DNA from: Thermoproteota archaeon
GTDB lineage: Archaea; Korarchaeota; Korarchaeia; Korarchaeales; Korarchaeaceae
Length of the DNA: 64,000 nt
NCBI GenBank assembly: GCA_027491435.1
Contig: JAOZFG010000004.1
Span: 32,001 to 96,000 of the forward strand
Direction of reading: 5' to 3'
A program made the position numbers and the translations under genes. The notes under the pieces were generated by a model. That model had not been told where the DNA came from. It worked only from the letters and a program-made list of their open reading frames with translations, and made no database searches. Positions 29,560 to 64,000 of this stretch are shown one piece after another. Each line of letters opens with the position of its first letter. Positions within the stretch are counted from its first letter, which is position 1.

Positions 29560-30657
29560 ATGGTAAAGACTACAATCTCCGTTATAAAGGCGGATATAGG
29601 GGGTTTAGCAGGCCACCACGTAGTCCACCCCAGGCTTAAGGAAGTATCTGTAGCAGAACTTACTGCCGCCAAGAAGGACGGGCTCATAGAGGACTTCTAC
29701 GTGACTGCTGTAGGTGATGACCTGCAACTGATCATGACTCATAGGAAGGGAGTAGATAACCCTGAAATACACGAACTGGCCTGGAACGTCTTCAGCAAGG
29801 GCACAGAAGTTGCTAAACAACTTGGTCTATACGGGGCAGGTCAGGACCTATTGAAGGACGCTTTCTCAGGTAACTTAAAGGGGATGGGCCCTGGAGTGGC
29901 CGAGATGGAGTTTGAAGAAAGGCCATCCGATCCAGTGATAGTGTTCATGGCCGATAAAACGGAACCTGGGGCGTTTAACCTGCCTATCTTCAGGACCTTT
30001 GCCGACCCCTTTAATACGGCGGGCCTAGTCATAGATCCCCGGCTTCATGAAGGATTCATTTTCGAAATAATGGACGTGTTTGAGGACAAAGTGGTGGAGA
30101 TGTCCTCTCCTGAGGAGATGTACGATATATTAGCCCTAATAGGCACTACTGGAAGGTACGTCATCAGGAGGGTCTTTAGGAAGTCTGACAGGGAAATAGC
30201 AGCGGTGGTCAGCACCACAAGGCTTAGCCTAATAGCCGGTAAATACGTGGGTAAGGACGATCCAGTCGCCATAGTTAGGGCTCAAAGCGGTTTTCCAGCG
30301 CTAGGTGAAGTATTAGAGCCCTATACTCTCCCCCACCTGGTGGCTGGGTGGATGAGAGGGTCGCACAATGGCCCCTTAATGCCTGTGGGGGAGAAGGACG
30401 CTAGGCCAACTAGGTTCGACGGTCCTCCCAGAGTGATAGCCCTAGGATTCCAGATAAAGAACTCTAAGCTTATAGGACCCAGCGATCTCTTCTCAGATGT
30501 GGCCTTTGATGAGGCCAGAAGGCTGGCAAACGTAATAGCTGACTACATGAGGAGACATGGGCCTTTCATGCCTCACAGGCTTGGGCCCGAGGAGATGGAG
30601 TATACAACCCTACCTAAGGTCCTAGAGAAAATAAAGGAAAGGTTGAAAGAAGCCTAA
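29560..30657 (+). CDS. fbp: Fructose-1,6-bisphosphate aldolase/phosphatase
   Basis: SVIKADIG, GLYGAGQDLL, YVGKDDP, GWMRGSH. Confidence 0.96.
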   Translation: MVKTTISVIKADIGGLAGHHVVHPRLKEVSVAELTAAKKDGLIEDFYVTAVGDDLQLIMTHRKGVDNPEIHELAWNVFSKGTEVAKQLGLYGAGQDLLKDAFSGNLKGMGPGVAEMEFEERPSDPVIVFMADKTEPGAFNLPIFRTFADPFNTAGLVIDPRLHEGFIFEIMDVFEDKVVEMSSPEEMYDILALIGTTGRYVIRRVFRKSDREIAAVVSTTRLSLIAGKYVGKDDPVAIVRAQSGFPALGEVLEPYTLPHLVAGWMRGSHNGPLMPVGEKDARPTRFDGPPRVIALGFQIKNSKLIGPSDLFSDVAFDEARRLANVIADYMRRHGPFMPHRLGPEEMEYTTLPKVLEKIKERLKEA

Positions 30658-51892: not shown

Positions 51893-53012
51893 CCGATTCT
51901 ATTATGGAAAGCCAGATATCAGTAACCTCCCTGGCCCTGGGCAACTCTGACTTCGCTCCCGCCCTTATTAAGTAGCTATCCCACTTTTTTGCGTATTCTA
52001 AGAGAGCTGGAACGTTCTCAACCTTTCCTAGGTAGTAGAGAAGCCTTATGTGTAGCCTATGGTACCTCTCGTTCGCCTTACCGTGTTTTGGTGAGTAGAG
52101 CGACCAGCTACCGCAATCGTACTCGGGGAGTATCTTTATCAGGGTAGCAATGCCCTCTTCAAGGTGCTTCTTAGCGATGGGATCTTCTACTAACTTAGTG
52201 TATATGGAAAGCCCTTTTAGGGATAACATGAACCCGTTGAGGACGTGATCGTCCGACGCGTGAGAGTACTCCAAGTAGAAGGGACCCTCAGGCAAACTAA
52301 TCCTGAACCCGCCCTTACTAAGGGGGGTTCCAAAGCTCTTGGCTAGGCCTCTAGCGACCTCTAAATAGGTCTCATTTCCCGTCTTGAGATAGGCTAAGGC
52401 GTAATAGCCGGCCCCTATTCCCTGGGATATGGAGCTCACCCACGGTATCTTGGCCGTCTCCCAGGCAAAGTAGAACTTAAAGAAGGCGACGTCCCCCTGG
52501 AACTCGAGGTATCTGAGCATGCCATCAAGTATTCCCAGGAACTCGCTCCAATTGTTCCTGTAGATGAGGGCTGCCGTTGCCAAGTTTAGGGAGTTTATGT
52601 GGTGAACGTTGAACCCTTGATTGTTTAAGTAGACCAGGGGGACTCTAACTCCAGGCGGACGGTAGTTCTCGAAGAGGCTCGGGTTACCTGAGTAGTGGAC
52701 GTCCGAATTTAATGAGTCAACAAGCTGGTAGAAGGCTTGTCTAGTGAGGTTCACAGAGGAATACCTCTTGAGTAGGTCTAAGATCTCATCCCTGAACTCC
52801 GACCTGTTGCAGGCCTCTCTAGTCAACTTCAGGAAGTTATCCACCTCCCTGTAGGCGACTCCAGCGTCTACAGCCTTATCAGCCAAGGACCTGATCTGAT
52901 CATCAGGCAGATAGCAGTTAGCAACCTCGTAACTCCTCCTCATCATAAACGCGTGGATGGCCAGAAGGGCTAAGATCAACGTTGAAACGAAGAGAATCTT
53001 AAGGACTTTCAC
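51882..53012 (-). CDS. Exported D-glucuronyl C5-epimerase family protein
   Basis: WVSSISQG, YLEY, VLNGFM, YDCGSWSLY, YHRLHIRLL; N-terminal signal anchor. Confidence 0.85.
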   Translation of the reverse strand: MKVLKILFVSTLILALLAIHAFMMRRSYEVANCYLPDDQIRSLADKAVDAGVAYREVDNFLKLTREACNRSEFRDEILDLLKRYSSVNLTRQAFYQLVDSLNSDVHYSGNPSLFENYRPPGVRVPLVYLNNQGFNVHHINSLNLATAALIYRNNWSEFLGILDGMLRYLEFQGDVAFFKFYFAWETAKIPWVSSISQGIGAGYYALAYLKTGNETYLEVARGLAKSFGTPLSKGGFRISLPEGPFYLEYSHASDDHVLNGFMLSLKGLSIYTKLVEDPIAKKHLEEGIATLIKILPEYDCGSWSLYSPKHGKANERYHRLHIRLLYYLGKVENVPALLEYAKKWDSYLIRAGAKSELPRAREVTDIWLSIIESVRS

Positions 53013-54666
53013 TGGATACTACCCCCACAGTGGCCCTGCTGTAATAAGAGAGGGGACATACCTCATTACAAAGCCCGCAAGAAGTGCACCTCTCAGCGTT
53101 CACCCTGATGCCCTCGCTCAAGTAGAGGGCATCGCAGTAAGTGGTACAGACCCCGCACTCGGTGCAAGAGCTTACCCTCACGTATATCCTAGCGAGCTCC
53201 TTTAGGGCTTTACCCTCGAACTCAACGGCGTTCTCCTTGAAGATGAGTCGGCCCTTCTCCAGGTTCAACTTACCGTCATCTGGTTTACCTAAGGTGATCG
53301 AGAGCTCCTTCACCCTGCTGGTAAAGTTACCTGTTAAGGCCAAGTTCTCCCTGATTTTTAAGGTGGTTAAAGGGGGCCTCTTGTATATGCCGAGCCTTCT
53401 GAAGCCCTTGGGTGGCTTAATCCACCTCCAAAGTCCTAGCTTCACCCACTCCTCACTGTAACCCCTTTCGCCAGCGTACTTCCTCAGAAAGGATTCCCAC
53501 CTATCCCAGAGATCTGGATACCTCTCCTTAACCATGAGGTAATCTGCTATCTTAGCCGCGGGGCACAGATAACAGCCTAACCTCTTAAATCCTTGGTAGT
53601 ACAGGGGGTTGAGCTCGACGCCCCTGCTCCAAGCGTAGAGCCACACAGACAAGGCGGTCCAATCGTTAATCGGTGAGGCCGACAGGAACCCGGGCATCCA
53701 AGGGTTTCTCCAGATTGGCGGAGACTTGGATCTAGCGATGGACTCGAACTTCCTCTGTCCTACCAATGTGAGGGCTGGCATGAAGGGCTTCAAAGCCCTG
53801 AACGTAGGTGCTAGTTTAATTACTTTGCAGCACCACCTATAATCCCTAGCAGGCGGTCCAAACTTACCCACATACCTCCAAAAGGAGTCCCCAGCATCCC
53901 CTACTATGTCCACACCCACCTTCTCGACGAACTTTAGGGTTTCAGGTAGTTCTAGCCCGGTGTCGTTGAAATAGACCTTGAAGTCCACGTCGCTCCTGCT
54001 CACCAAGTCGAGCAGAGTGGAGCTGTCCTTTCCCCCGGAAAACGAGAGAATAAGCCTTCTCTTTTTAGCTAATCTCCTAATAAAAAGTATAGATTTACCC
54101 ATTAAAGAGTTTAGACAGTATTCATTTAACTTGATCATCCTCTTCCTGTCGTGAGGGACTTCCAATGGCTCGGGGCCCGGCTTAAAGACCTTTACCTGAA
54201 CGTATTTATTGCCTTGTCTCTCAGCTAACCCGTTTTTAGTGAGTACAAATTTAGGGTCATCCTCCTTGGCCTCTCCAATGACGGTTCCTTTATCGCCAGA
54301 GGCATTTATCTTGTCCAAGTAACTTCTAAGCCTCTCCGCTCCCGCTCGAGAGGGCTTGAAGTACCACCTAAAGTCGAAGATGTCGAAGAACAAGTGACCT
54401 AAAACGACTCCGTCAGCAATGATCTCATAGGATAGATCCAAGTACGGGACCTTTCCCATCAAGATTACTTGATCACCGTTGGGGAGAAGTTTCTGATAAC
54501 TGCCGGTCCCAAATTGATCTTCTAAAACGCTCTTTAACAATTTTAGATCGAAGTCTGTGGCTGGAGAGGGATCGCTCCACTTCGAAGTTCTGATAACCCT
54601 GACCTCCTCCCCTGAGCAGCCCTTAAGTAGGGGCACGTTGTTTTCAACGTCCCAGAGGAGCATCAA
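52999..54666 (-). CDS. PAPS-reductase-family PP-loop protein with C-terminal ferredoxin domain
   Basis: SFSGGKDS, DTGLE, RWCCKVIK, RLGCYLCP, two CxxCxxCxxxC motifs. Confidence 0.88.
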   Translation of the reverse strand: MMLLWDVENNVPLLKGCSGEEVRVIRTSKWSDPSPATDFDLKLLKSVLEDQFGTGSYQKLLPNGDQVILMGKVPYLDLSYEIIADGVVLGHLFFDIFDFRWYFKPSRAGAERLRSYLDKINASGDKGTVIGEAKEDDPKFVLTKNGLAERQGNKYVQVKVFKPGPEPLEVPHDRKRMIKLNEYCLNSLMGKSILFIRRLAKKRRLILSFSGGKDSSTLLDLVSRSDVDFKVYFNDTGLELPETLKFVEKVGVDIVGDAGDSFWRYVGKFGPPARDYRWCCKVIKLAPTFRALKPFMPALTLVGQRKFESIARSKSPPIWRNPWMPGFLSASPINDWTALSVWLYAWSRGVELNPLYYQGFKRLGCYLCPAAKIADYLMVKERYPDLWDRWESFLRKYAGERGYSEEWVKLGLWRWIKPPKGFRRLGIYKRPPLTTLKIRENLALTGNFTSRVKELSITLGKPDDGKLNLEKGRLIFKENAVEFEGKALKELARIYVRVSSCTECGVCTTYCDALYLSEGIRVNAERCTSCGLCNEVCPLSYYSRATVGVVSSESP

Positions 54667-54719
54667 CTCCGGCCCACCCCCTAGTCGGCAGAACGCCTTT
54701 TAAGCGTAGTGTTCTATGT

Positions 54720-54739
54720 CCGAACACGAAAATGTTCGG
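54720..54739. promoter_or_regulatory. Inverted repeat CCGAACA-N6-TGTTCGG, candidate transcription-factor site
   Basis: Perfect 7-bp arms just upstream of the TATA-like box of the 54666 minus-strand operon. Confidence 0.4.
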
Positions 54740-54834
54740 TCAAGTTTAGTCACGCGAGGACGTTGGAGCGAGGGCTCAGGACGTCTGGGTGAGAGGGAGA
54801 GCGGTTATCCTTTGAACCCTTAACAACCCGCCCA

Positions 54835-55398
54835 TCACCTCATAGCCATGAGTTTGAACAGCTTCTCTAGACAGGAGTTGCAAGGCCTCCAGTCCTTACG
54901 ATCTACCTCTTCTATGGTCTCACTGAAGCTCATTACGCACTTCGGGTTGAAGCAGTGATCTAATCCAAAAAGGTGTCCAAGCTCATGAGATACCTCCTTT
55001 AGAGCTCTGACGTAAAGTAGCTCATCGTCCTGCTCGTAGGGCCTCAACCTTGCCAAATAGACCACGCCAAATTTCCCATTGACCTCAGCCTGCCCGAATA
55101 TGAAATTAGTGTTAGTTGCGTACCCATCGTCATCTACGATGATTATAACCTTTTCATCGAGCCTCCACCTATCTACTGCCCTTAGATAAGTTATCAGTTT
55201 TTCACTCTTTATCATTCCGTCTCTCTCTTTATCATAAACGTGCGGCGGTACCCTTATGCCCCTCTCATCAATTCTAACGTTGACTGGATAAGCTTCTGGT
55301 AACCTCTCACCGATGAACTCCAGCAGAGAGATCTCGATGAAGTTAGCAGGCACTAGCACCACGTTCACGGGCTCCATGAAGGATCGAGTAATCATCAC
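54835..55398 (-). CDS. amzA: Archaemetzincin (M54 zinc metalloprotease)
   Basis: NFIFGQA, HELGHLFGLDHC...CVMSFS...D-x-K...C-x2-C. Confidence 0.92.
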   Translation of the reverse strand: MMITRSFMEPVNVVLVPANFIEISLLEFIGERLPEAYPVNVRIDERGIRVPPHVYDKERDGMIKSEKLITYLRAVDRWRLDEKVIIIVDDDGYATNTNFIFGQAEVNGKFGVVYLARLRPYEQDDELLYVRALKEVSHELGHLFGLDHCFNPKCVMSFSETIEEVDRKDWRPCNSCLEKLFKLMAMR

Positions 55399-55413
55399 AA
55401 CGGATTATTTAAG

Positions 55414-55587
55414 TTAACGCGGTCCGCCTATTAAATATGAAAGCAGGATAGTGCTTAAATTAACGTAGTAGGCGGAGCCCATCCAGATCGGCCTTAACTG
55501 GAATCTGGCGACGTAGAACCCGGCTAGGACGGCCATTATGATCAGGAATATCAGGCCTATGAGCCTACTAACACGCACCCTTCTCAT
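55414..55587 (-). CDS. Small membrane protein (57 aa); not in the ORF track
   Basis: MRRVRVSRLIGLIFLIIMAVLAGFYVARFQLRPIWMGSAYYVNLSTILLSYLIGGPR; ATGA overlap with the nth stop; fills the gap to amzA. Confidence 0.6.
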   Translation of the reverse strand: MRRVRVSRLIGLIFLIIMAVLAGFYVARFQLRPIWMGSAYYVNLSTILLSYLIGGPR

Positions 55588-56246
55588 TCCCTCACACCTA
55601 TTTTAGGGCATATATCGCTTAGCGGGCATGATTCGCATTTAGGATTTCTGGCCTTACAGTAAGTCCTGCCCAACTTTATCAGCAAAAGATGTCCCTTCAA
55701 GTAATCTTCTGGACTGAAGAACTCCATCAGAAATCTCCTAGCTTCCTCGTAGTTAGCGTCCTCGGGAACTAAGCCGAGCCTCTTGCTGACCCTCATCACG
55801 TGAGTGTCAACTGGGAAGGTCGGGTAGTTAGCGGTCATCAAGAGGACCACGTCAGCAGTTTTAGGTCCCACTCCTCTGAGGGACTTCAGGACTTCTCTAG
55901 CAGATTCCCCGTCCATGCTCAGGATTTTGTTCAGCTTACCGTTGGTCAAGTTAACTGCTAACTCCTTAATAACCCTGGCCTTTTGGCGGTATAGTCCGGC
56001 TGGTCGGATGGCTTGCTCAATCTCCTTAACGTCAGCCTTGGCCAGGGCTTCTGGGGTTATCTTGTAGATCTTCTTCAAGTTGTTCAGGGCCCTGAAGGAG
56101 TTCTTGTCAGTGGTATTCTGGGATAACACCGTGGCGACTAAGACCTCGAAGGGGTTTTTGGTTTTAGACGCCTTTAAGGCTATAAATTCCTCATCTCTTA
56201 TCTCAAAGGCCTTCTGAAGTCTACTTATCAACTCTTTTGGACTCAC
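55584..56246 (-). CDS. nth: Endonuclease III (HhH-GPD, 4Fe-4S)
   Basis: LSQNTTD, GVGPKTA, PVDTHV, C-x6-C-x2-C-x5-C. Confidence 0.94.
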   Translation of the reverse strand: MSPKELISRLQKAFEIRDEEFIALKASKTKNPFEVLVATVLSQNTTDKNSFRALNNLKKIYKITPEALAKADVKEIEQAIRPAGLYRQKARVIKELAVNLTNGKLNKILSMDGESAREVLKSLRGVGPKTADVVLLMTANYPTFPVDTHVMRVSKRLGLVPEDANYEEARRFLMEFFSPEDYLKGHLLLIKLGRTYCKARNPKCESCPLSDICPKIGVRE

Positions 56247-56622
56247 TTATGGCACCTCTGACTTTGTTCAGGAACTTCTCCAGGTTAACGATGTATCTCT
56301 CGTGCTCTCCCTCGCCTATGAGCACATCCCTCCAGTAAGCCTCCACCCTGAAGGTGAGCTTTCTCCCGCTCACGTCAACCAGCTTAACTCGAACCCTCAC
56401 TACCTCTCCTACTGGAGCCGGCGCTTTATGAGAGACGCACACTTTGGTTCCCACAGTGGTGTGTCCCTCGGGTATCCTGTCCTGCACGAGCCTGTGGGAG
56501 GAGATCTCCATTAGGCCTATCATGGACGGAGTTGACAGCACCTTCACTTCCCTTATGTGACCTGCAGCCATCTCCTCGCTAACTTCGTAAGAGAACTCGC
56601 CTTCTAAACCCCTTTCAAGCAT
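56221..56622 (-). CDS. FlK-like hot-dog thioesterase
   Basis: VLSTPSMIGLME, TVG...H-x-AP, GEHER. Confidence 0.88.
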   Translation of the reverse strand: MLERGLEGEFSYEVSEEMAAGHIREVKVLSTPSMIGLMEISSHRLVQDRIPEGHTTVGTKVCVSHKAPAPVGEVVRVRVKLVDVSGRKLTFRVEAYWRDVLIGEGEHERYIVNLEKFLNKVRGAISESKRVDK

Positions 56623-56680
56623 AACATCACCACCTAGAGACCCTAGAAACGTTTATATATCCTTCTAAAAGTCAAGACCT

Positions 56681-56992
56681 ATGAGCTCATGGGAGTCCGG
56701 GGTAAAAAAGGCCATCGAGAGATTTAACGAGATGAGGAGCCCGGAGGCTGTGGCCGAGATATTGCTGTTGGAGGGCGATAACCTCATAATAAGGATAAGT
56801 GGGCCATTCTGTGCATCATGTGGACTCTTTGACTACTTTGATGACTTGGCCTTCCTCTTAGAAGAGGAGTTAGGCGTCCTGGTCTCAGTAGAAGAGGTTG
56901 AGGAGCTGGAGGACTCATCCTACCTGGCCTTGTACAAGATAGGGGTTAAGGAGAAGAAGGACAGGAGGCTGGAACCTGTCTTCAACCCCTGA
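56681..56992 (+). CDS. Hypothetical protein with NifU-C-like CxxC motif
   Basis: ISGPFCASCG...DYFDD; TTTATATA about 25 nt upstream. Confidence 0.65.
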   Translation: MSSWESGVKKAIERFNEMRSPEAVAEILLLEGDNLIIRISGPFCASCGLFDYFDDLAFLLEEELGVLVSVEEVEELEDSSYLALYKIGVKEKKDRRLEPVFNP

Positions 56993-58022
56993 CGTTCCAG
57001 TACTTGGAGAAAACCTTCTTACCCTCATCTATCAGGGCCCTCGTCCTCCTGATAACCCGATCATCTTCTATTTCAGGGGATCCGTCAACCTCCCTGGGGT
57101 CCTTGGGAAGTACCTCACCCATGAACCCATAAGATAAAGCCAGCCACCCCCAGTTCCTTATCTCCTCGTTGTACCCGCTGATCAGAAGGTTCACCTTGCT
57201 TTTTGACTTAAGAGAGGAGGCCCATCCACCAAGCTCCCACAGGCCCTCAATGGTCTGACCTAAGTTGGTTAGCGGGTCTGAGTAGTGGGGGTCGCTCCCC
57301 CCATGAGCGATCACGAGGTCTGCATCGAAGCTCTCAGTTATGGGCACCACAAGCTCCTCTATAGCTATCTTGTAGGACTCGGGCCCCGCTTTAGGGGGTA
57401 GGGGGACGTTAACCGTGTACCCTTCGCCCTTACCCCTTCCAACCTGGTGTAGAAATCCAACTCCAGGGTAAATAGTTGCTGGATCCTGATGGAGGCTTAC
57501 GTACAAGACGCTATCGTCTTCATAAAATATTTCCATAGTCCCGTTACCGTGATGGGCGTCGTGGTCGAATATTAGGACTCTATCAACTCCCTGAGATTGG
57601 GCCCATCTGGCAGCTACCGCAACGTCGTTGATCAGGCAAAAGCCTCCCCCCTCTCTCACGCCCGCGTGATGGGCGCCCCCAAATCCTAAAGAAGATCCCT
57701 CTCGAAGGGCGACCCTTATAGCCGATAGCGCCGAGTACACTAAACTTAGGGAAGCTTCCCACATACCCTTAAAAGCGGGGGTATCTAGGGAAATCAGCCC
57801 AAACCCCTTGCGGCTCATCTCAATTAGTTTATCTAAGTACCCCTTGTCGTGAACCCTCAATAAATCTTGAAAGGTGGGAGGTTCTCCTACGGGGTCTATG
57901 ATCTCTATTGGAGCGCCTAATCTTCTAATGAACCTAACAAATTTGGGGAATCGATCACCCCGGAAGGGGTGACCGTACCCAAAGTCATAGTCCTTAACTC
58001 CTGGTACGTATGGGAACTTCAT
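56982..58022 (-). CDS. Zn-dependent histone-deacetylase-family (AcuC-like) protein
   Basis: GHP, GGAHHA, GFC..ND, DAHHGNGT, SLH, D...DPL. Confidence 0.92.
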   Translation of the reverse strand: MKFPYVPGVKDYDFGYGHPFRGDRFPKFVRFIRRLGAPIEIIDPVGEPPTFQDLLRVHDKGYLDKLIEMSRKGFGLISLDTPAFKGMWEASLSLVYSALSAIRVALREGSSLGFGGAHHAGVREGGGFCLINDVAVAARWAQSQGVDRVLIFDHDAHHGNGTMEIFYEDDSVLYVSLHQDPATIYPGVGFLHQVGRGKGEGYTVNVPLPPKAGPESYKIAIEELVVPITESFDADLVIAHGGSDPHYSDPLTNLGQTIEGLWELGGWASSLKSKSKVNLLISGYNEEIRNWGWLALSYGFMGEVLPKDPREVDGSPEIEDDRVIRRTRALIDEGKKVFSKYWNVRG

Positions 58023-59674
58023 GGTATCTCAAGCAATTTCCTGACCTCTATCTTGTAAATAAGCTGTCTGTAATATGAGGGCTTACCCCCAACGGCCACT
58101 CCATAAGCCCCCTCCATTATTGCGGCCTCTATAAATTTAGGCGTCAAGGGGCCGTGTTTAACGCTGACTATGAACTTCTTACCTTTCATGCTGGATAGAA
58201 GTCTGTTTATGTAGACAACCTTGCCCATCTCGCTGCTAAATGGTTTTATCAGAGAGGGCACGTCCAGTATTACCTTATCCCAATCTAAGGTGATTGCTGC
58301 ACCGGGGTTTCTCATGACAGCCCACAGGTCTTTTACGCCATATCCCTTCAACAAGCTTAAGTAGAGTTCTATCTCATCCGTGGTCTCAGCTATTATAGCG
58401 TAAGACCTGTACACGGATCTGCTGATCTTATTCTCCTCGAAAGGCACGCCTCTTGGCAGTAGGGCTATAACCTCTTTCCCTTGTATTGAAGGGGCTTTGT
58501 CCAGAGTGGTGATAACGCCGTCGAACCTGTCAACGTTCTTAGGCGATGAGCTCCTGAGAAACAGCCTGGTTCCCGTGACCACGCTCACCACGATGGGCTT
58601 TCTGTAATGCTTCTCCTCCACCACAACCTCCTTGGCCTTCTCCACTTCGGCCTTCTCCTTATTCACCTCAACCTCCCTACTCAAGCGCTGTACGGGCTGA
58701 CTCAAGAATTCTAAAACCCTCTTCTCCACGGCTCTCACCGGAGGTCTCTCAGGCTCCTTGTGAGCCTGTATAACGTATAGGTCAGAGGTCCCATCTTGAA
58801 CTATCCACTCCACCCTTGTCGGGGTGCCGAAGACCTTCGATAGGTTGACAGAGGTCCTAGTTATCTCTATTATTTTGGCCTCATCTAGGGACGAGTTAAC
58901 CCAGAGGTTCTGAGGGACCTCCTCCCTTTTAATCCCCTGCGGGGTGGGAACTGCCCTGAACCTCTTCTCCTCAACCTCGCTTTCAACGACCCTCATGTCT
59001 TCCACTAACACCTTAAACCTGTCTTTAGCGGAATCTGCTGCCATTAACCCCCAAGTGGACTCTATAAGAACTTCTCCAGCCCTTCTAGATGGACAACATA
59101 CAGCTATGCCAGAGGAGAGTGGATAAATAACCTTCTGAATGATGGCAGCTATGCTTATGTCTTCCGGAGGAATACCCAGATCAATTAACCTGGCTATCAA
59201 CCTTAGGGAAAAGGCCTCAAGCCAGAGGTTGGTGAGAGCTCGCTTTATCCCTTCCTTATTAGCTCTATCAAACCAGACCCTAGTCCTACCCTCTAGATCT
59301 CCGTCTTTAAGGCCCATGGCATATGGAGACGGCCTGACCACTATGAACTTGGCTGATAGGTCATCCAATTTCTCTAAGATCCCCTCTATGAGCTCATCAG
59401 GCACCTCCATCGACTGGGCTTTCCTGAACACCCTGTCAAGCCATTCCTTAACTTTCGCCAGGTTTGCCTCATCTTCTCTCAAGTAGCGGGCTAGCCTGAA
59501 GATCTCATGCCTGAGGCCCTCCCTCTGCAACCACCTGTTGAACTGACTTGTAGTCACCACCAGCCCAGGAGGAACCCTAATGCCGCTCTCTATAACCCTG
59601 TAGAGGTTCTTTGCTTTAAAACCGACGTCTTCCTCCGGAGCTCCCCTCAAATCACTCAGGTACAGGATAGTCAA
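58019..59674 (-). CDS. PEP synthase-like protein lacking the phospho-His swivel domain (probable pseudoenzyme)
   Basis: VGFKAKNL, VPPGLVVT, IIQK...SGIA, IESTWGL, VEW...LYVIQA ATP-grasp motifs; no TSHAAI motif. Confidence 0.7.
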   Translation of the reverse strand: MTILYLSDLRGAPEEDVGFKAKNLYRVIESGIRVPPGLVVTTSQFNRWLQREGLRHEIFRLARYLREDEANLAKVKEWLDRVFRKAQSMEVPDELIEGILEKLDDLSAKFIVVRPSPYAMGLKDGDLEGRTRVWFDRANKEGIKRALTNLWLEAFSLRLIARLIDLGIPPEDISIAAIIQKVIYPLSSGIAVCCPSRRAGEVLIESTWGLMAADSAKDRFKVLVEDMRVVESEVEEKRFRAVPTPQGIKREEVPQNLWVNSSLDEAKIIEITRTSVNLSKVFGTPTRVEWIVQDGTSDLYVIQAHKEPERPPVRAVEKRVLEFLSQPVQRLSREVEVNKEKAEVEKAKEVVVEEKHYRKPIVVSVVTGTRLFLRSSSPKNVDRFDGVITTLDKAPSIQGKEVIALLPRGVPFEENKISRSVYRSYAIIAETTDEIELYLSLLKGYGVKDLWAVMRNPGAAITLDWDKVILDVPSLIKPFSSEMGKVVYINRLLSSMKGKKFIVSVKHGPLTPKFIEAAIMEGAYGVAVGGKPSYYRQLIYKIEVRKLLEIP

Positions 59675-60450
59675 GCTATCACCTCTACCACATCTCCTAC
59701 GCCGGCCCCCGATAACTTCGCGGCGTTGCCCCTAGCCACTGAGATTTCCATAAGGTTCGTGCTTCCCCTTATTATAAGGAACCCCCTTCCCTCGTAATAA
59801 GGTGACCTATAGGCCTGTAGAACGGCCCTTCCCACCTTTATGAAAGCCCTTTTAAGGTTCTTAACCTCTCTCCATGGGATGTTGGTCACCAGGTTGCCAA
59901 ACCTATCGACGTTCATTATCTCGCCGATTATCCTGTTGCCGGATCTTCTATAGTTCCATATGTTTAGCTTGATCAGGTCCTGTATTGACTTAGGGAATCC
60001 GAAGCTTTCTATATTCCTTCCACACGAGATCATACCAGCTATCGGGGCAAACACGTCCCTGCCATCGAAGGTGCCAGTTCTCCTGAAGGCTAGTCCCGTC
60101 GACTCTAAGTCTATCTTGTAGGCTTTGTAGGACCTACCCTCTATAGAGGGCCAGAAGAGCCCGTTATCAGGTCCGACGAAGGTGAACTCCCCGGTAAGCA
60201 CTATAGGATCCCTATCGGACCCAACCCCCGGGTCAACCACCCCCACCACTATAGCTCCCTTAGGGATGGCCGTTAGGGATTGCCATATAAGAAAGGATCC
60301 ATGTTTGACGTTGAACGGGAGAACCTTGTGCGTTATATCGTACACGTTGGCGCCTGGGCACTCCCTCTTTATGGCTCCCTTAAGAGCTCCAACGTAATAG
60401 CTCTCATCTCCGAAGTCGGTTATCAGGAAAATTGGGGCACTCATCATCAT
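59671..60450 (-). CDS. SAM hydroxide adenosyltransferase (DUF62)
   Basis: LITDFG, DITH, VVDPGVG, GPDNG, TFDGRDVFAP, VDRFGN; start placed at ATG about 60450. Confidence 0.9.
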   Translation of the reverse strand: MMMSAPIFLITDFGDESYYVGALKGAIKRECPGANVYDITHKVLPFNVKHGSFLIWQSLTAIPKGAIVVGVVDPGVGSDRDPIVLTGEFTFVGPDNGLFWPSIEGRSYKAYKIDLESTGLAFRRTGTFDGRDVFAPIAGMISCGRNIESFGFPKSIQDLIKLNIWNYRRSGNRIIGEIMNVDRFGNLVTNIPWREVKNLKRAFIKVGRAVLQAYRSPYYEGRGFLIIRGSTNLMEISVARGNAAKLSGAGVGDVVEVIA

Positions 60451-60506
60451 AACCACTCCTAACCCTTTATAAGGTCCCGCGCTCACCTGCCCTTGAGGGA
60501 AAGAGG

Positions 60507-60725
60507 ATGGATAGATCACGTGGCCTAACCATTAAGGCCATCGTCATCATGGCCTTCGGCGTGGCCCTAGTTGTATCGTCCTTTTTAGTCATGGTAATGG
60601 ACATCAGCTCCCTCCTTCTAGTCCTGAGGGTAACCACTTTCTCTTGGATGTTCTTACTGGGCCTGGTTCTCATACTAATATCGTATAAGCTGATGACTCT
60701 CAGGCCTCCTCCCCCTCAAGAGTGA
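60507..60725 (+). CDS. Small two-TM membrane protein
   Basis: Hydrophobic 72 aa ORF filling the gap; purine-rich leader and TTTATAA box upstream. Confidence 0.55.
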   Translation: MDRSRGLTIKAIVIMAFGVALVVSSFLVMVMDISSLLLVLRVTTFSWMFLLGLVLILISYKLMTLRPPPPQE

Positions 60726-61278
60726 GCGGGAAGGAGTGCAGCGTCTCGTAAATGGGCCCCTTAGGCGTTAACGTGCTCTTCTTAAGTCTAACTTCCCTCA
60801 CCTCAATCTCGCCGATCTCCACGTTCTCAACTCTAGTTATTAGGCTGGGCAGGTCAGAAGACCTGTACTTAACCCTGGCTATTGTCAAATGAGGTTCGAA
60901 GGACCTCTTCTCCTTAGGAAACCCGACCTTCCTCAAGGCGTCCTCTACTAGGTTGGCGAGCCTAATCAGCGAATCCCTCCCGTCGCTGACCCCCACCCAT
61001 ATTACGTTGGGCCTGCTTACCCTAGGGAAGGCGCCCACCCTCTCTAGCCTAATCCTGAACGGGTCAACTCCCTTAAGGGCTCCCTCTAGGGCCTTCACTA
61101 TCACGGGTATTCTAGTCTCCTCTACCTCTCCCAGGAATTTCAGGGTTATGTGGAGATTCTCTGGCTCAACCAGCTTTATCCTGGCCGAGGAGGAAGATAT
61201 CTCTCTCTGTATATCAACTATCTTACCCCTTACGAGCTCGTCCTCTAAATCAACGGCTACGAAAGTCCTCAGCCTCAT
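60700..61278 (-). CDS. thpR: RNA 2',3'-cyclic phosphodiesterase (2H family)
   Basis: HITLKF and PHLTIAR motifs; STLTPKGPIY. Confidence 0.94.
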   Translation of the reverse strand: MRLRTFVAVDLEDELVRGKIVDIQREISSSSARIKLVEPENLHITLKFLGEVEETRIPVIVKALEGALKGVDPFRIRLERVGAFPRVSRPNVIWVGVSDGRDSLIRLANLVEDALRKVGFPKEKRSFEPHLTIARVKYRSSDLPSLITRVENVEIGEIEVREVRLKKSTLTPKGPIYETLHSFPLTLEGEEA

Positions 61279-61279
61279 T

Positions 61280-61633
61280 TCACCTCAGCTCTGGCGGAAC
61301 CCCCTCATTGGGTATCATGCAGAGGAACGTCACTTCCTCGTAGGCCTCGTAGGAGTGGGGAAGGTTGGGAGGTATGAAGATCGCGTCGCCTTCCTTAACT
61401 TCGTAATCTTCTCCTCCTATGGTTATCTTACCCCTCCCCTTCAGTATTAGGATTTCATGCTCCCAGGGGTGCTTGTGTTCGGGTATCTTGCCCCCTTCAT
61501 CCATCCTGAATATCCTCATCGAGAAGTTGGGGACACCGTCCTTTGGGGAGAAGACCCACTTTATCCAGGTCTTCTCTGCTATTTCAACTGGTTTGAACTC
61601 TAGCTCCTCCAAACTCTTGATGATCGGTTTCAT
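61280..61633 (-). CDS. Cupin-domain protein
   Basis: HKHPWEHE...G-x-G...IPPNLPH. Confidence 0.9.
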   Translation of the reverse strand: MKPIIKSLEELEFKPVEIAEKTWIKWVFSPKDGVPNFSMRIFRMDEGGKIPEHKHPWEHEILILKGRGKITIGGEDYEVKEGDAIFIPPNLPHSYEAYEEVTFLCMIPNEGVPPELR

Positions 61634-61677
61634 ATAACGTTATAACGACGACAGGGTATTAAATTTAGCGAGGTAGC

Positions 61678-62568
61678 ATGAGGGCCCTGGTAACAGGAGC
61701 GAGCGGCATGCTCGGCTTGAACCTAACAGAGCTTCTACTGAAAGAAGGGTGGGATCTAACCTTCTTGGTGAATCCAGGGAGCTTAAAGAAGAGGCCTTGG
61801 GCGAAAAGCCTCCTTAAGGGGAGAATAGTAGAGTCTAGAGTGGAGGAATTCGGGGAAAGGTTGGACGTAGATGTGGTGTTTCATCTAGCGGCGGTGATGA
61901 GGGGCCCCACCTGGAGGATCAACTATCAGGGAACGAAAAACGTCCTAGAAAGGGTCTCATTCGATAAGTTCGTACTGGTTAGCAGCATTCTAGCCTTAGG
62001 GGACTCCCTGAATCAAAATGCGTCAGAAGACACTCTATGCAGGCCTAGAACTGGTTATGAGAAGTCCAAGTGTGAGGCTGAAAGGGAAGTGTCTAAGCTG
62101 GAGGACTTCGTTATAGTCAGGCCCGGTTGGATATACGGCAAGTATTCCATCAACCCAGACATACTTAGCATCGTCAGGTTAGTTAAGCGGGGGATCGCAC
62201 CGGTGTTGATTGATGAAGAGCTGCCTTTAGCTATGGTCAACGCTAAGGACGTGGCTAGGGCCATTTTACACCTGGTAAAGATAGGGGCTAAAGGGACGTT
62301 CAACGTGAGAGGGCCTAGGATGTACTCTATGGGGGAGCTAATTGATGTTATATCCTCTGTCTTAGGTAAGAAGCCCATTAAAGTTAGGTTGCCAAAGCTA
62401 GCTGTAAGCCTGTATTCCAAGAGGGTGGACGTAGCTAGATACCTGTTGCTAGCACCGAGAGACGTTCCTATAGACAGGTTAAGGGAAACAGGCTTCAACC
62501 CTTCTGTGGAACTCGATGAAGGGATGGAAGAGGCCATATCTTGGATGAGGGGGCAGGGGATAATCTAG
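61678..62568 (+). CDS. NAD-dependent epimerase/dehydratase (extended SDR)
   Basis: TGASGMLG, FHLAA, SS, YEKSK, RPGWIYG. Confidence 0.9.
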   Translation: MRALVTGASGMLGLNLTELLLKEGWDLTFLVNPGSLKKRPWAKSLLKGRIVESRVEEFGERLDVDVVFHLAAVMRGPTWRINYQGTKNVLERVSFDKFVLVSSILALGDSLNQNASEDTLCRPRTGYEKSKCEAEREVSKLEDFVIVRPGWIYGKYSINPDILSIVRLVKRGIAPVLIDEELPLAMVNAKDVARAILHLVKIGAKGTFNVRGPRMYSMGELIDVISSVLGKKPIKVRLPKLAVSLYSKRVDVARYLLLAPRDVPIDRLRETGFNPSVELDEGMEEAISWMRGQGII

Positions 62569-62610
62569 ATCAAAGTTTATAAATGGGCAAGCCCCTCCCA
62601 TTCTCTGGGA

Positions 62611-62720
62611 GCCGGGGTAGCTCAGCCTGGTTAGAGCACCGGACTCATAAGCTGGATGGGCCCACGGTGCTCTGCTGGGAAATCCGGGGGTCCCGGGTTC
62701 AAATCCCGGCCCCGGCACCA
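62611..62720 (+). tRNA. tRNA(CAT), probably elongator Met, with a 32-nt intron (62650-62681) at 37/38
   Basis: GCCGGGG/CCCCGGC acceptor, CCGGA-ctCATa^a-TCCGG; BHB with CTCA:TGGG helix and TAA/AAA bulges; CCA encoded; TTTATAAA upstream. Confidence 0.93.
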
Positions 62721-62722
62721 CT

Positions 62723-63493
62723 TCAAGTTAAGTCTCCGCAGTTACAGTAGACCTCGTGTATTATGTCATAAAGCTCGTCGAACCCGCTTCCAGATAGGGC
62801 TGAGACCCTGACCAGCCTGGTCGCTTGTCTGTAGTCGTCCATGACCTGAACCAGGGACTGAGCCAGGTCTGCCCTTACTCCAGCTTCCCTGCTCAACGCT
62901 TCCATCAGAACGAGCTCCTCCTCCAAGGATCTGGCCACCTCATCTGAGATCTCAACGTCCGCCTTGTTGAGTATGGGTATGCTGTCCACGTCCAACCTGA
63001 GCTGTATTACTGTGGCCATCAGCTTGAGAGCTACTAAGTCAGAAGGTTTCTTAGCTAGCAGGGGGTCAAAAACAACTATAGCGACTGGAAAGCCTATCCT
63101 CTTCAAAATGCCCAGGAGCTCGGGTCCATTTTCCCTGAAAACGAACAGCTCCATCTGACCGGGGGTGTCCACTAGCACGTAGTCTGATGGTATCCTCACA
63201 AGCTCTCTATATATCTGATCGCCAAGCTCCAGCATTAAGTCAGCGCTCTTGATGAAGGCCCCATTAGGGCCCAAGTTGTATTTCTTCATGACGTCGGTGA
63301 CTCTGATGTACTTCCTGATGTCAAAGTCTGGCTTGTAAGGGAGGTAGTCTGCACCAGGATCCAAGTTAACGTACCCAACTTTCACGCCCCTGCTCTCCAA
63401 CCATCTGCCGTAACTGCCAACAAGGGTGGTCTTTCCAGATCCAGCCGGGCCCAGCACCACTACAAACTGCTTTGACAGGAGGAACTCAAACAT
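62723..63493 (-). CDS. GPN-loop GTPase
   Basis: GPAGSGKT, NLDPG, LGPNGA, DTPGQME, NKAD, VSA. Confidence 0.94.
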   Translation of the reverse strand: MFEFLLSKQFVVVLGPAGSGKTTLVGSYGRWLESRGVKVGYVNLDPGADYLPYKPDFDIRKYIRVTDVMKKYNLGPNGAFIKSADLMLELGDQIYRELVRIPSDYVLVDTPGQMELFVFRENGPELLGILKRIGFPVAIVVFDPLLAKKPSDLVALKLMATVIQLRLDVDSIPILNKADVEISDEVARSLEEELVLMEALSREAGVRADLAQSLVQVMDDYRQATRLVRVSALSGSGFDELYDIIHEVYCNCGDLT

Positions 63494-63504
63494 TTTTGAC
63501 CCCC

Positions 63505-63894
63505 CTAAGGGAGAACCTCCACTCCCCTTCTTAAGGCTTTTACCCTTAATTCCTCATCAAAAGTTACTATAGGAGCTCTATAATCTTCAGAAATTATGAG
63601 TATGACCTCATCTTCCCAGTTACCTATACCTTTAAGCAGGCCTTCGATTAAAGACTCTGGGCTAGGACAGATGACGCTAGCCCTCCTATCGGATAAAACC
63701 CTGACAACAGCGGAGATGGCATCTTTATCTCCGAGGCCGGCTCCCCTTAAGAACCATATAAGCTCGTGGATAACCACGTCTGGGATTATCCACTCACTTG
63801 CCTTGTTTAGGACTGTCTTGGCTTTCTCGTGAAGTTTTTGATCTTCAAACAAGTAGTAGATTACAGCGTTAGTGTCGACAACGACCCTCCTCAA
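63505..63894 (-). CDS. vapC: PIN-domain (VapC-like) toxin
   Basis: VVDTN, VIHE, ED, TFDEEL. Confidence 0.88.
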   Translation of the reverse strand: MRRVVVDTNAVIYYLFEDQKLHEKAKTVLNKASEWIIPDVVIHELIWFLRGAGLGDKDAISAVVRVLSDRRASVICPSPESLIEGLLKGIGNWEDEVILIISEDYRAPIVTFDEELRVKALRRGVEVLP

Positions 63895-64000
63895 CTCTTG
63901 GCACCGTGGGCTATTAGCTCTTTTATCTCATTAACGTTGACCTCCCTGCCCAGCGCAAGCCTGTTGTGAGCCTCAATGGGTCGAATCACTACAGCCTCAC
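63891..64000 (-). CDS. C-terminal part of a probable AbrB/MazE-type antitoxin (start outside the window)
   Basis: ...EAVVIRPIEAHNRLALGREVNVNEIKELIAHGAKS*; TTGA overlap with the PIN start. Confidence 0.6.
   Translation of the reverse strand, partial: EAVVIRPIEAHNRLALGREVNVNEIKELIAHGAKS

Follow-up and report, generated by a model that had tools for sequence, protein, structure and literature searches.

Introduction

Phosphoenolpyruvate (PEP) synthase, or PpsA, holds a central place in the metabolism of hyperthermophilic archaea, in which it is very abundant; like pyruvate phosphate dikinase (PPDK), it passes phosphate by way of a histidine carried on a swivel domain. This article examines a member of that lineage encoded in the genome of a Thermoproteota archaeon of the family Korarchaeaceae (assembly GCA_027491435.1), at positions 58019-59674 (minus strand) of a 64,000-nucleotide stretch of contig JAOZFG010000004.1 (positions 32,001 to 96,000), referred to here as the window. 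The protein of 551 aa keeps the ATP-grasp domain of PEP synthase and a shortened C-terminal barrel; the swivel domain and the catalytic motifs of the barrel are lost, and it therefore cannot make PEP.

The archaeal multimeric PEP synthases (PDB entries 9dae and 8a8e; protein family TIGR01418) share with the target protein the ATP-grasp fold and family, the genomic slot after a DUF62 gene, the best structural match to its C-terminal domain and a terminal helix motif, E-x-R-x-L-L-E. The target differs from them in that it has no swivel domain, its barrel comprises ~185 rather than ~300 aa and carries no PEP, pyruvate or metal motifs, and its ATP-grasp domain has RPS for RSS, DLKGR for SFAGQ, QAH/YK for QxRP and a GLGExxVxG loop that is four residues shorter. 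ATP-grasp proteins of the same branch without a histidine domain on the chain are found among the two-component dikinase subunits HpeI (9goj), CreI and PpsB. Unlike the target, these have no C-terminal barrel and work with a partner bearing the swivel histidine and the substrate site, of which there is none in the source genome. The nucleotide-binding motif of these subunits is described in PMC12167813 as resembling that of PEP synthase. Rifampin phosphotransferase of the RPH-Lm type (5hv1, 5fbs) is the best structural match to the whole model and shares ligands of the nucleotide phosphates with the target; in contrast to it, RPH-Lm has its own rifampin-binding and swivel histidine domains, and nothing suggests that the target modifies antibiotics. 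The barrels of pyruvate kinase, of enzyme I of the phosphotransferase system (PTS) and of HpcH/HpaI aldolase are among the top structural matches to the C-terminal domain, which is nevertheless much smaller and has no conserved metal or substrate ligands. In the literature on PEP synthase with DUF62, Korarchaeota gluconeogenesis and PPDK_N, no description of a PEP synthase without a histidine domain was found, and the main text of a Korarchaeota genomics paper (PMC12787533) makes no mention of gluconeogenesis, phosphoenolpyruvate, ppsA, PEP carboxykinase (PEPCK) or pyruvate kinase.

Domain Architecture of the Target Protein

The target gene starts with TTG, with which the first methionine of its relatives aligns in the family alignment, and its reading frame is intact. 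Four-nucleotide overlaps join its start to the stop of the upstream DUF62 gene (TTGA, in the context gcTTGAct) and its stop to the ATG of a downstream deacetylase gene (ATGA, in the context ccATGAag), as the initial annotation of this DNA had reported. The sole Pfam domain is PPDK_N (PF01326; residues 15-309, E 1.7e-41, 143 bits against a cut-off of 27), and neither the histidine swivel domain (PEP-utilizers, PF00391) nor the barrel (PEP-utilizers_C, PF02896) gives a Pfam match in the target. At 90.9 bits, the match to the PEP synthase model TIGR01418 stays under the cut-off of 739.75, and it covers model positions 2-329 of 784 only; the protein thus falls below the full-length cut-off but passes that of the PPDK_N domain.

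The protein can be divided into a PEP-synthase-type ATP-grasp domain (residues 1-326; 58697..59674, minus strand), assigned by Pfam and Foldseek, in which the catalytic loops are remodelled (RPSPY, DGDLxGR, DLGxPED, SSGxAVCCP, ESTWG and VEW...IQAH/YK), a disordered linker rich in E, K and V (residues 327-367; 58574..58696, minus strand) that stands where the phospho-histidine swivel domain belongs, and a mini TIM barrel of ~185 aa (residues 368-551; 58022..58573, minus strand) that structural, profile and hhalign matches derive from PEP-utilizers_C. An AlphaFold model of the full protein, built with 11 family sequences in the input (mean predicted local distance difference test score, pLDDT, 78.6), consists of the ATP-grasp domain, a stretch with pLDDT <50 at residues 327-367 and a C-terminal domain of eight strands alternating with helices. 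The 41-residue linker varies in length and sequence across the family, and no divergent histidine domain appears in either the AlphaFold model or the Pfam search; the replacement of the swivel domain by a linker, proposed in the initial annotation, is therefore upheld. In Foldseek searches with the whole model, the best match was rifampin phosphotransferase 5hv1 (E 8.1e-22, 320 columns), and the ATP-grasp domain of the Neisseria PEP synthase 2ols (E 3.3e-21) and HpeI 9goj (E 1.3e-17) were also matched.

The ATP-Grasp Domain

Nine family members were aligned with seven canonical sequences for comparison of the ATP-grasp domain, and invariance within the family was assessed in 21 sequences with 29-84% identity to the window protein. 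Among these sequences 62 alignment columns do not vary; 58 of them lie in the ATP-grasp domain, and the window protein retains all 62. Canonical ligands that are invariant in the family (21/21) include K20 (the lysine of GGK), R114 (the arginine of RSS), Q180 (the glutamine of vQxMv), E289 (the glutamate of DIEW) and Q303 (the glutamine of QxRP). A phmmer alignment to 5hv6 equates K20, R114 and E289 with K22, R117 and E297 of RPH-Lm, residues that hold the alpha and beta phosphates and Mg2+ and of which the first yields a dead enzyme when mutated (K22A), according to PMC4844700. The alpha-phosphate ligand T136 of RPH is replaced by V133 in the target. This pattern of retained ligands suggests that the target binds a Mg-adenine nucleotide.

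The catalytic loops of the domain have been rebuilt. The change of RSS to RPS that had been noticed in the initial annotation is seen in the alignment as VRPSP in place of the canonical VRSSA; SATAED....SFAGQ has become SPYA....DGDLKGR, FT has become CC, and the GLGExxVxG loop carries a four-residue deletion. The aspartate of DIEW is replaced by valine or methionine, and the arginine of QxRP by histidine or tyrosine (motif QAH/YK). The latter arginine is presumably R337 of Clostridium PPDK, a phosphate ligand, and the PDB titles among the structure matches include R337A and K22A PPDK mutants. The replacement residues are in turn invariant in the family (G125, D126, L127, G129, R130, D165, L166, G167, P170, E171, D172 and C193), as is the pair R55-H56.

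The family has a more remote homologue in P0036, a protein of 477 aa (hhalign probability 93.5%, E 2.2e-7). It has kept the mini-barrel and the terminal helix, while its ATP-grasp domain has degenerated further, giving no Pfam match and carrying serine at the position of the Mg-binding glutamate.

The C-Terminal Mini-Barrel

Residues ~368-549 form an eight-stranded beta/alpha barrel in the AlphaFold models, including one of the C-terminal domain alone that was built from 16 sequences (pLDDT 72.9; predicted template modelling score, pTM, 0.70). When the domain model was compared with 48,161 representative chains without the Foldseek prefilter, the top match was the PEP-binding domain of Staphylothermus marinus PEP synthase (9dae_A; Z 14.4, root-mean-square deviation 2.9 Å, 188 residues), followed at ranks 2 and 3 by two pyruvate kinases (Z 14.2 and 14.0). 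Pyruvate kinases overall score Z 12.3-14.2 and PTS enzyme I Z 11.9-12.0; generic or unrelated TIM barrels reach Z 11-12.8, so that the structural margin for the PEP-barrel match is modest. By Foldseek, the domain matched pyruvate kinase at 2e-6, 9dae_A at 5.8e-6 and HpaI/HpcH at ~1e-5.

A profile of the C-terminal domain searched against 1.84 billion representative proteins returned seven matches at E <=0.001, comprising five family members, P0036 (E 7.5e-4) and a 782-aa protein, P0037 (E 8.3e-4), that has all three PpsA domains and to whose last residues, 724-777 (54 residues), the profile aligns. In an hhalign comparison between the C-terminal piece of the family alignment (from ~residue 355) and an alignment of seven canonical sequences, residues 91-196 of the piece matched residues 654-784 of a 790-aa PpsA colinearly and end-to-end, the E value being 0.043 and the nominal probability low. 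These matches point to a sequence link between the barrel and PpsA that is weak but colinear, and together with the related fold they favour the shrunken PEP/pyruvate barrel that had been proposed for this part of the protein. Pfam searches with the 16 domain sequences at E up to 10 gave chance matches only, and residues 345-551 had no usable match in the ESM Atlas. Response regulators (E 0.012) and 2-keto-3-deoxy-6-phosphogluconate aldolase (E 0.07), found with the profile among PDB sequences, were treated as a generic alpha/beta signal.

Every PEP, pyruvate and metal motif of the barrel is gone, the positions of RTE, E, ND and CGQ/CGE being taken by other residues. In the family, GIGLxRTE is replaced by VDGxxx, the glutamate of MxEvP by a non-acidic residue, SIGSNDL by GAVLPI, and CGQ by VDL (VKH in the window protein); just the DG of the N-terminal xDGxGLxRxE motif survives (D385, G386). 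Across the 21 sequences only four columns of the domain are invariant (D385, G386, E543 and R545). The last two of these, with the conserved L548, correspond to the E-R-x-x-L of canonical ERRI(L/M)LE, a segment that spans residues 795-803 of 8a8e. The canonical C-terminus reads ...ICGQAPSVYP..FLV.aGIDSISVNPDaV..tRRLVArIERRilLEk... and that of the family ...VDLkEevPsVDLI..LL.aGv.GF.L.......Q...I.RAEmR.LLEK...

A C-terminal alpha-helical oligomerisation motif has been described for the PpsA 24-mer of P. furiosus, and removal of the last 20 residues of S. marinus PEP synthase abolished its oligomerisation, as stated in a preprint (bioRxiv 10.1101/2022.08.11.503304). The family segment E543-L548 falls in the region of that P. 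furiosus motif, which suggests that the target may likewise form oligomers. The methionine of the family's RAEMR was considered as a counterpart of the iron-binding Met-799 of the P. furiosus enzyme and rejected, since Met-799 aligns, via canonical PpsA, with the first leucine of LLE.

Descent from ppsA in Place

The gene immediately upstream of the target (59671-60519, minus strand) encodes a DUF62 protein, or S-adenosylmethionine (SAM) hydroxide adenosyltransferase, of the (R)-SAM hydrolase family (Pfam SAM_HAT_N, E 2.7e-42; SAM_HAT_C, E 1.5e-12); the NCBIfam (R)-SAM hydrolase models score it at 160 and 138 bits, under their cut-offs. In all 18 loci of the genus the truncated gene immediately follows DUF62 on the same strand, the two genes overlapping or lying <=10 nucleotides apart. 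The origin of this arrangement was examined in three sister genera of the family, represented by five genomes, where a canonical three-domain PpsA (793-842 aa; PPDK_N E ~1e-121, PEP-utilizers E ~1e-28 to 1e-30, plus PEP-utilizers_C) is encoded 3' of DUF62 in the same orientation. PpsA and DUF62 are immediate neighbours in four of the five, and in the fifth (L031) one 239-aa open reading frame (ORF) separates them; the linkage is absent from two more distant genomes that were examined. The truncated form thus fills the ppsA slot in 18/18 genus loci, and the target is best described as an in-place, domain-deleted orthologue of ppsA, that is, its positional descendant.

A maximum-likelihood tree was computed for 25 ATP-grasp domains, of which 11 came from the 21 members of the family, eight from PpsAs encoded at the loci and six from database proteins. 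The family members group as a single clade (100/100), whose stem measures 2.59 changes per site (~2.4-2.6) and which falls inside an unresolved group of archaeal PpsAs, and a tree that groups it with the DUF62-linked PpsAs has a log-likelihood 0.31 higher than the free tree and is not rejected (approximately unbiased test, p-AU 0.53). The tree is compatible with descent in place and, given the long branches involved, is not proof of it.

DUF62 preceded an intact PpsA in the ancestor, and its adjacency to the target is therefore inherited and carries little information on any new role linked to SAM. The coupling to SAM status suggested by the initial annotation loses its footing here, as the adjacency predates the truncation.

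Distribution and Purifying Selection

A word-indexed search found nine further clusters of full length (542-561 aa) along with a fragment of 395 aa, the remaining matches being canonical PpsA-like proteins at E 1e-15 or weaker. Among species representatives of the window's genus, 18 of the 20 other genomes encode the truncated form (E 1e-68 to 1e-102, 32-46% identity), completeness being 83% and 70% in the two that do not; all 13 high-quality genomes of the genus carry the gene. Outside the genus, the same query returned only canonical ORFs of ~760-1110 aa, at E 1e-26 or weaker.

The ratio of nonsynonymous to synonymous divergence (dN/dS) was calculated for nine pairs of relatives by the Nei-Gojobori method with Jukes-Cantor correction. 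It amounts to 0.05-0.11 in the ATP-grasp domain and 0.09-0.26 in the barrel, compared with 0.06-0.19 in the adjacent DUF62 gene for the same nine pairs. In the four pairs with dS <0.5, the values are 0.05-0.09 and 0.09-0.18 for the two domains, respectively. The frame is open in 15/15 complete ORFs of the genus loci, with three more running off contig ends. Both domains are under purifying selection, and the homologues are maintained rather than decaying.

PEP Metabolism in the Source Genome

The source genome (G000; 1.64 Mb in 43 contigs, 99.46% complete) contains a single PPDK_N match, which is the target gene itself. Its best match to the swivel domain PF00391 (E 0.36) is below the cut-off and has a stop codon within it, and no match to PEP-utilizers_C was found in the genome. 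With the PPDK of a relative as query, only a 31-residue stretch was recovered, antisense to a conserved neighbour gene in a rearranged region. There is consequently no separate canonical ppsA in this genome, and the suggestion that the target is a non-catalytic subunit of PpsA finds no partner for it.

Elsewhere in the genus, 19 of the 20 other genomes carry one PEP-utilizers_C enzyme at another location. It is encoded by an ORF of 865-946 aa in 15 of the 19, is shorter or split in three, and is an 822-aa ORF of the PpsA type in G003; the copy in G012 is a PPDK (TIGR01828, 1253 bits). G003 has the truncated gene plus, elsewhere, a canonical PpsA of 819 aa (L029:3500-5959, G003:C7) that does not adjoin DUF62, and it gave no PPDK-type match. 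The source genome is the only high-quality member of the genus without a PEP-utilizers_C enzyme (12/13 have a match), and the genes that neighbour PPDK in relatives are present in it, in a rearranged region without PPDK (L039, G000:C30:6159-9251). In two sister genera (g2 and g3), a second PEP-utilizers_C protein occurs with frames of ~570-610 aa (E ~1e-115 to 1e-120), the size of PTS enzyme I. PTS enzyme I would be unusual in these archaea.

Pyruvate kinase is encoded in the source genome (E 3e-103), as is a fructose-1,6-bisphosphate aldolase/phosphatase (PF01950, E 1e-188) located within the window at 29566-30645 (plus strand; G000:C5:61566-62645). The latter implies that gluconeogenesis has been kept though no PpsA or PPDK was found, and gluconeogenesis from pyruvate must therefore use another route. 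A PEPCK_ATP-like ORF is present (57 bits, 598-aa frame; G000:C11:18564-19328), whereas GTP-dependent PEPCK was not found in the genome.

Neighbouring Genes

On the other side of the target, at 56982-58022 (minus strand), lies a gene for a histone-deacetylase-family protein (Hist_deacetyl, Pfam E 4.7e-63). It is next to the target in none of the 18 relatives' loci; its orthologue (63-64% identity) lies more than 200 kb off in G002 and, in G020, on a different contig, and is elsewhere in 5/5 relatives searched. Of the two neighbours emphasised in the initial annotation, then, DUF62 is conserved in position and the deacetylase is not, so that conservation lends no backing to the proposed coupling to protein acetylation. 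In relatives, the truncated gene is followed, in the 12 of 18 loci that reach far enough, by a gene of ~355-372 aa without Pfam domains and then, on the opposite strand, by genes for geranylgeranyl reductase and a radical-SAM protein. In the source genome this trio lies ~100 kb from the target; a rearrangement therefore broke the locus just behind the target and placed the deacetylase there. The first gene of the trio (~365 aa in relatives) was considered as a partner of the target and rejected, as it is ~100 kb off in the source genome and still beside the geranylgeranyl reductase and radical-SAM genes. Its product (~340-370 aa across genomes, with a hydrophobic N-terminus and no Pfam match) is always encoded beside geranylgeranyl reductase and the radical-SAM protein (HMPTM zinc-ribbon), at L010:1288-2307 (plus strand) in the source genome and at L003:7641-8759 and equivalent positions in relatives, and it evolves under purifying selection (dN/dS 0.10-0.19).

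Upstream of DUF62, a LigT-type 2',5' RNA ligase/cyclic phosphodiesterase (60700-61278, minus strand; Pfam) and a cupin (61280-61633, minus strand; Pfam in a relative and BLASTP to the window ORF) are encoded. LigT is upstream in 17 of the 18 loci, the eighteenth being too short to show it, and the cupin precedes LigT wherever the locus extends. Beyond the deacetylase, an ORF of 103 aa (56681-56992, plus strand) that contains a CxxC pair and matches no Pfam family converges on it, their 3' ends sharing 11 nucleotides (56982-56992). A gene run downstream of that ORF (52999-56622, minus strand) includes an FlK-type thioesterase by Pfam and, named from a reading of their sequences, endonuclease III-like and archaemetzincin-like (HELGHLFGLDHC) proteins and a 555-aa protein like 3'-phosphoadenosine 5'-phosphosulfate (PAPS) reductase with 4Fe-4S motifs. 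The ORF at 62479-62721 was considered as an antisense tRNA and dropped, ARAGORN finding no tRNA in 55000-64000.

Function and Alternative Explanations

In the explanation that we consider best, the ppsA gene of the genus ancestor lost its phospho-histidine swivel domain and ~40% of the PEP/pyruvate barrel, all catalytic motifs included, and the loops that offered ATP to the histidine were rebuilt as new invariant motifs. The ATP-grasp domain still carries the lysine, arginine, glutamate and glutamine that hold the nucleotide phosphates and Mg2+, and the dead mini-barrel, whose best-kept part is the C-terminal helix from which hyperthermophile PEP synthases form their oligomer core, would serve as an assembly module. 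As the gene is kept by selection though its parts for PEP synthesis are lost, it has some other job. We give about an even chance to an oligomeric protein that binds a Mg-adenine nucleotide and acts outside PEP synthesis in a non-ancestral role, most likely a regulatory or sensing one. A non-catalytic mode is favoured because the characterised relatives with a described mechanism need a histidine carrier, and because several phosphate-positioning residues are gone, P0036 even being without the Mg-binding glutamate. The loss of the ancestral catalytic residues and purifying selection among relatives are two marks of a pseudoenzyme, and the initial description of the target as a retained pseudoenzyme acting as nucleotide sensor or scaffold is a fair one, except that it cannot here be an accessory subunit of PpsA.

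Several observations weigh against this explanation. The position of Met-799, which coordinates iron in the P. furiosus 24-mer, is leucine in the family, and the mode of assembly may therefore differ from that of the 24-mer; the window's own clade is also without the extra C-terminal helix extension that most members carry. The dN/dS values come from relatives other than P0003 and P0004 (83% and 62% identical to the window's protein) rather than from the window's gene, and several of the nine pairs have dS >1, all but the four pairs with dS <0.5 being near or past saturation. The absence of PPDK and of a swivel-domain partner rests on an assembly of 43 contigs, in which a gap cannot be fully excluded. 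The constraint on the ATP-grasp domain is as strong as that on the neighbouring DUF62 enzyme, and a long stem followed by tight constraint fits a newly acquired catalytic function no less well than a sensor.

This last point leads to the alternative that the target is a neo-functionalised enzyme, in which the rebuilt cleft (RPSPY, DGDLKGR, DLGxPED, CCP, R55-H56) would employ Mg-ATP directly on a new acceptor, be it a small molecule or a protein, with no phospho-histidine involved, and the barrel would only hold the oligomer together. It could account for the invariance of the Mg and phosphate ligands K20, R114, E289 and Q303, for the 58 invariant ATP-grasp columns, many of them charged and in the loops that replace the canonical catalytic loops, for a dN/dS in that domain equal to or under that of DUF62, and for a burst of change that then gave way to constraint. 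On the other hand, RPH (PMC4844700) and HpeHI, CreHI and PpsAB (PMC12167813) route phosphate via a swivel histidine; the equivalent of RPH T136 is valine, the QxRP arginine and DIEW aspartate have been replaced, P0036 has serine for the Mg-binding glutamate, and the neighbourhood, itself inherited from the PpsA ancestor, offers no candidate substrate. We regard a new enzyme as the main rival, less likely than the nucleotide-binding protein but well ahead of the other alternatives. Its more specific form, a type of catalyst new to the PEP-synthase/PPDK branch that would transfer phosphate or pyrophosphate, or ligate, from ATP without a histidine carrier, with R55-H56, D126, R130, D165, E171-D172 and C193-C194 replacing the swivel domain and the dead barrel as nothing but the core of a large oligomer, is somewhat less likely still.

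The remaining alternatives fare less well. The target could be the ATP-grasp subunit of a split dikinase, phosphorylating a swivel histidine on another protein such as the relatives' PPDK; stand-alone subunits of this kind exist, one of them, HpeI, whose mechanism is described in PMC12167813, is matched by the whole model, and 19 of 20 genus relatives do carry a full-length PEP-utilising enzyme. But the loops that meet the histidine domain have been rebuilt, and the source genome has kept the gene with all 62 invariant residues while possessing no swivel domain, PEP-utilizers_C or PPDK, and we think this arrangement improbable. The coupling model of the initial annotation, in which a non-catalytic PEP synthase subunit ties SAM status and acetylation to gluconeogenic flux, could draw on the four-nucleotide overlaps with both neighbours, on the gluconeogenic aldolase/phosphatase in the genome and on the stabilisation of the P. 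furiosus PpsA 24-mer by lysine acetylation (reported in preprint 10.1101/2022.08.11.503304). It is largely refuted and now very improbable, there being no PpsA or PPDK to regulate here, no deacetylase beside the gene in relatives and a DUF62 adjacency older than the truncation. That the gene is a decaying relic, a ppsA pseudogene open by chance, is scarcely credible. The ancestral catalytic parts are indeed lost, the source genome has lost PPDK too, and the rate of evolution in the family exceeds that of canonical PpsA (paths of up to ~1.5 changes per site within the genus vs <=0.6 across three sister genera), but the uniformly open frames, dN/dS of 0.05-0.26, columns that stay invariant down to 29% identity and presence in every high-quality genus genome contradict it.

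Implications

A single chromosomal slot can be followed here from the intact three-domain enzyme of the sister genera to a form without histidine domain and with a dead barrel that strong selection has preserved genus-wide. The locus therefore provides a traceable case of the conversion of an enzyme to a non-enzyme (or to a new enzyme), and a natural experiment in what an ATP-grasp domain and an oligomer core do on their own. It also sets a trap for annotation, since the label 'phosphoenolpyruvate synthase' would wrongly grant the pyruvate-to-PEP step in metabolic reconstructions of these archaea.

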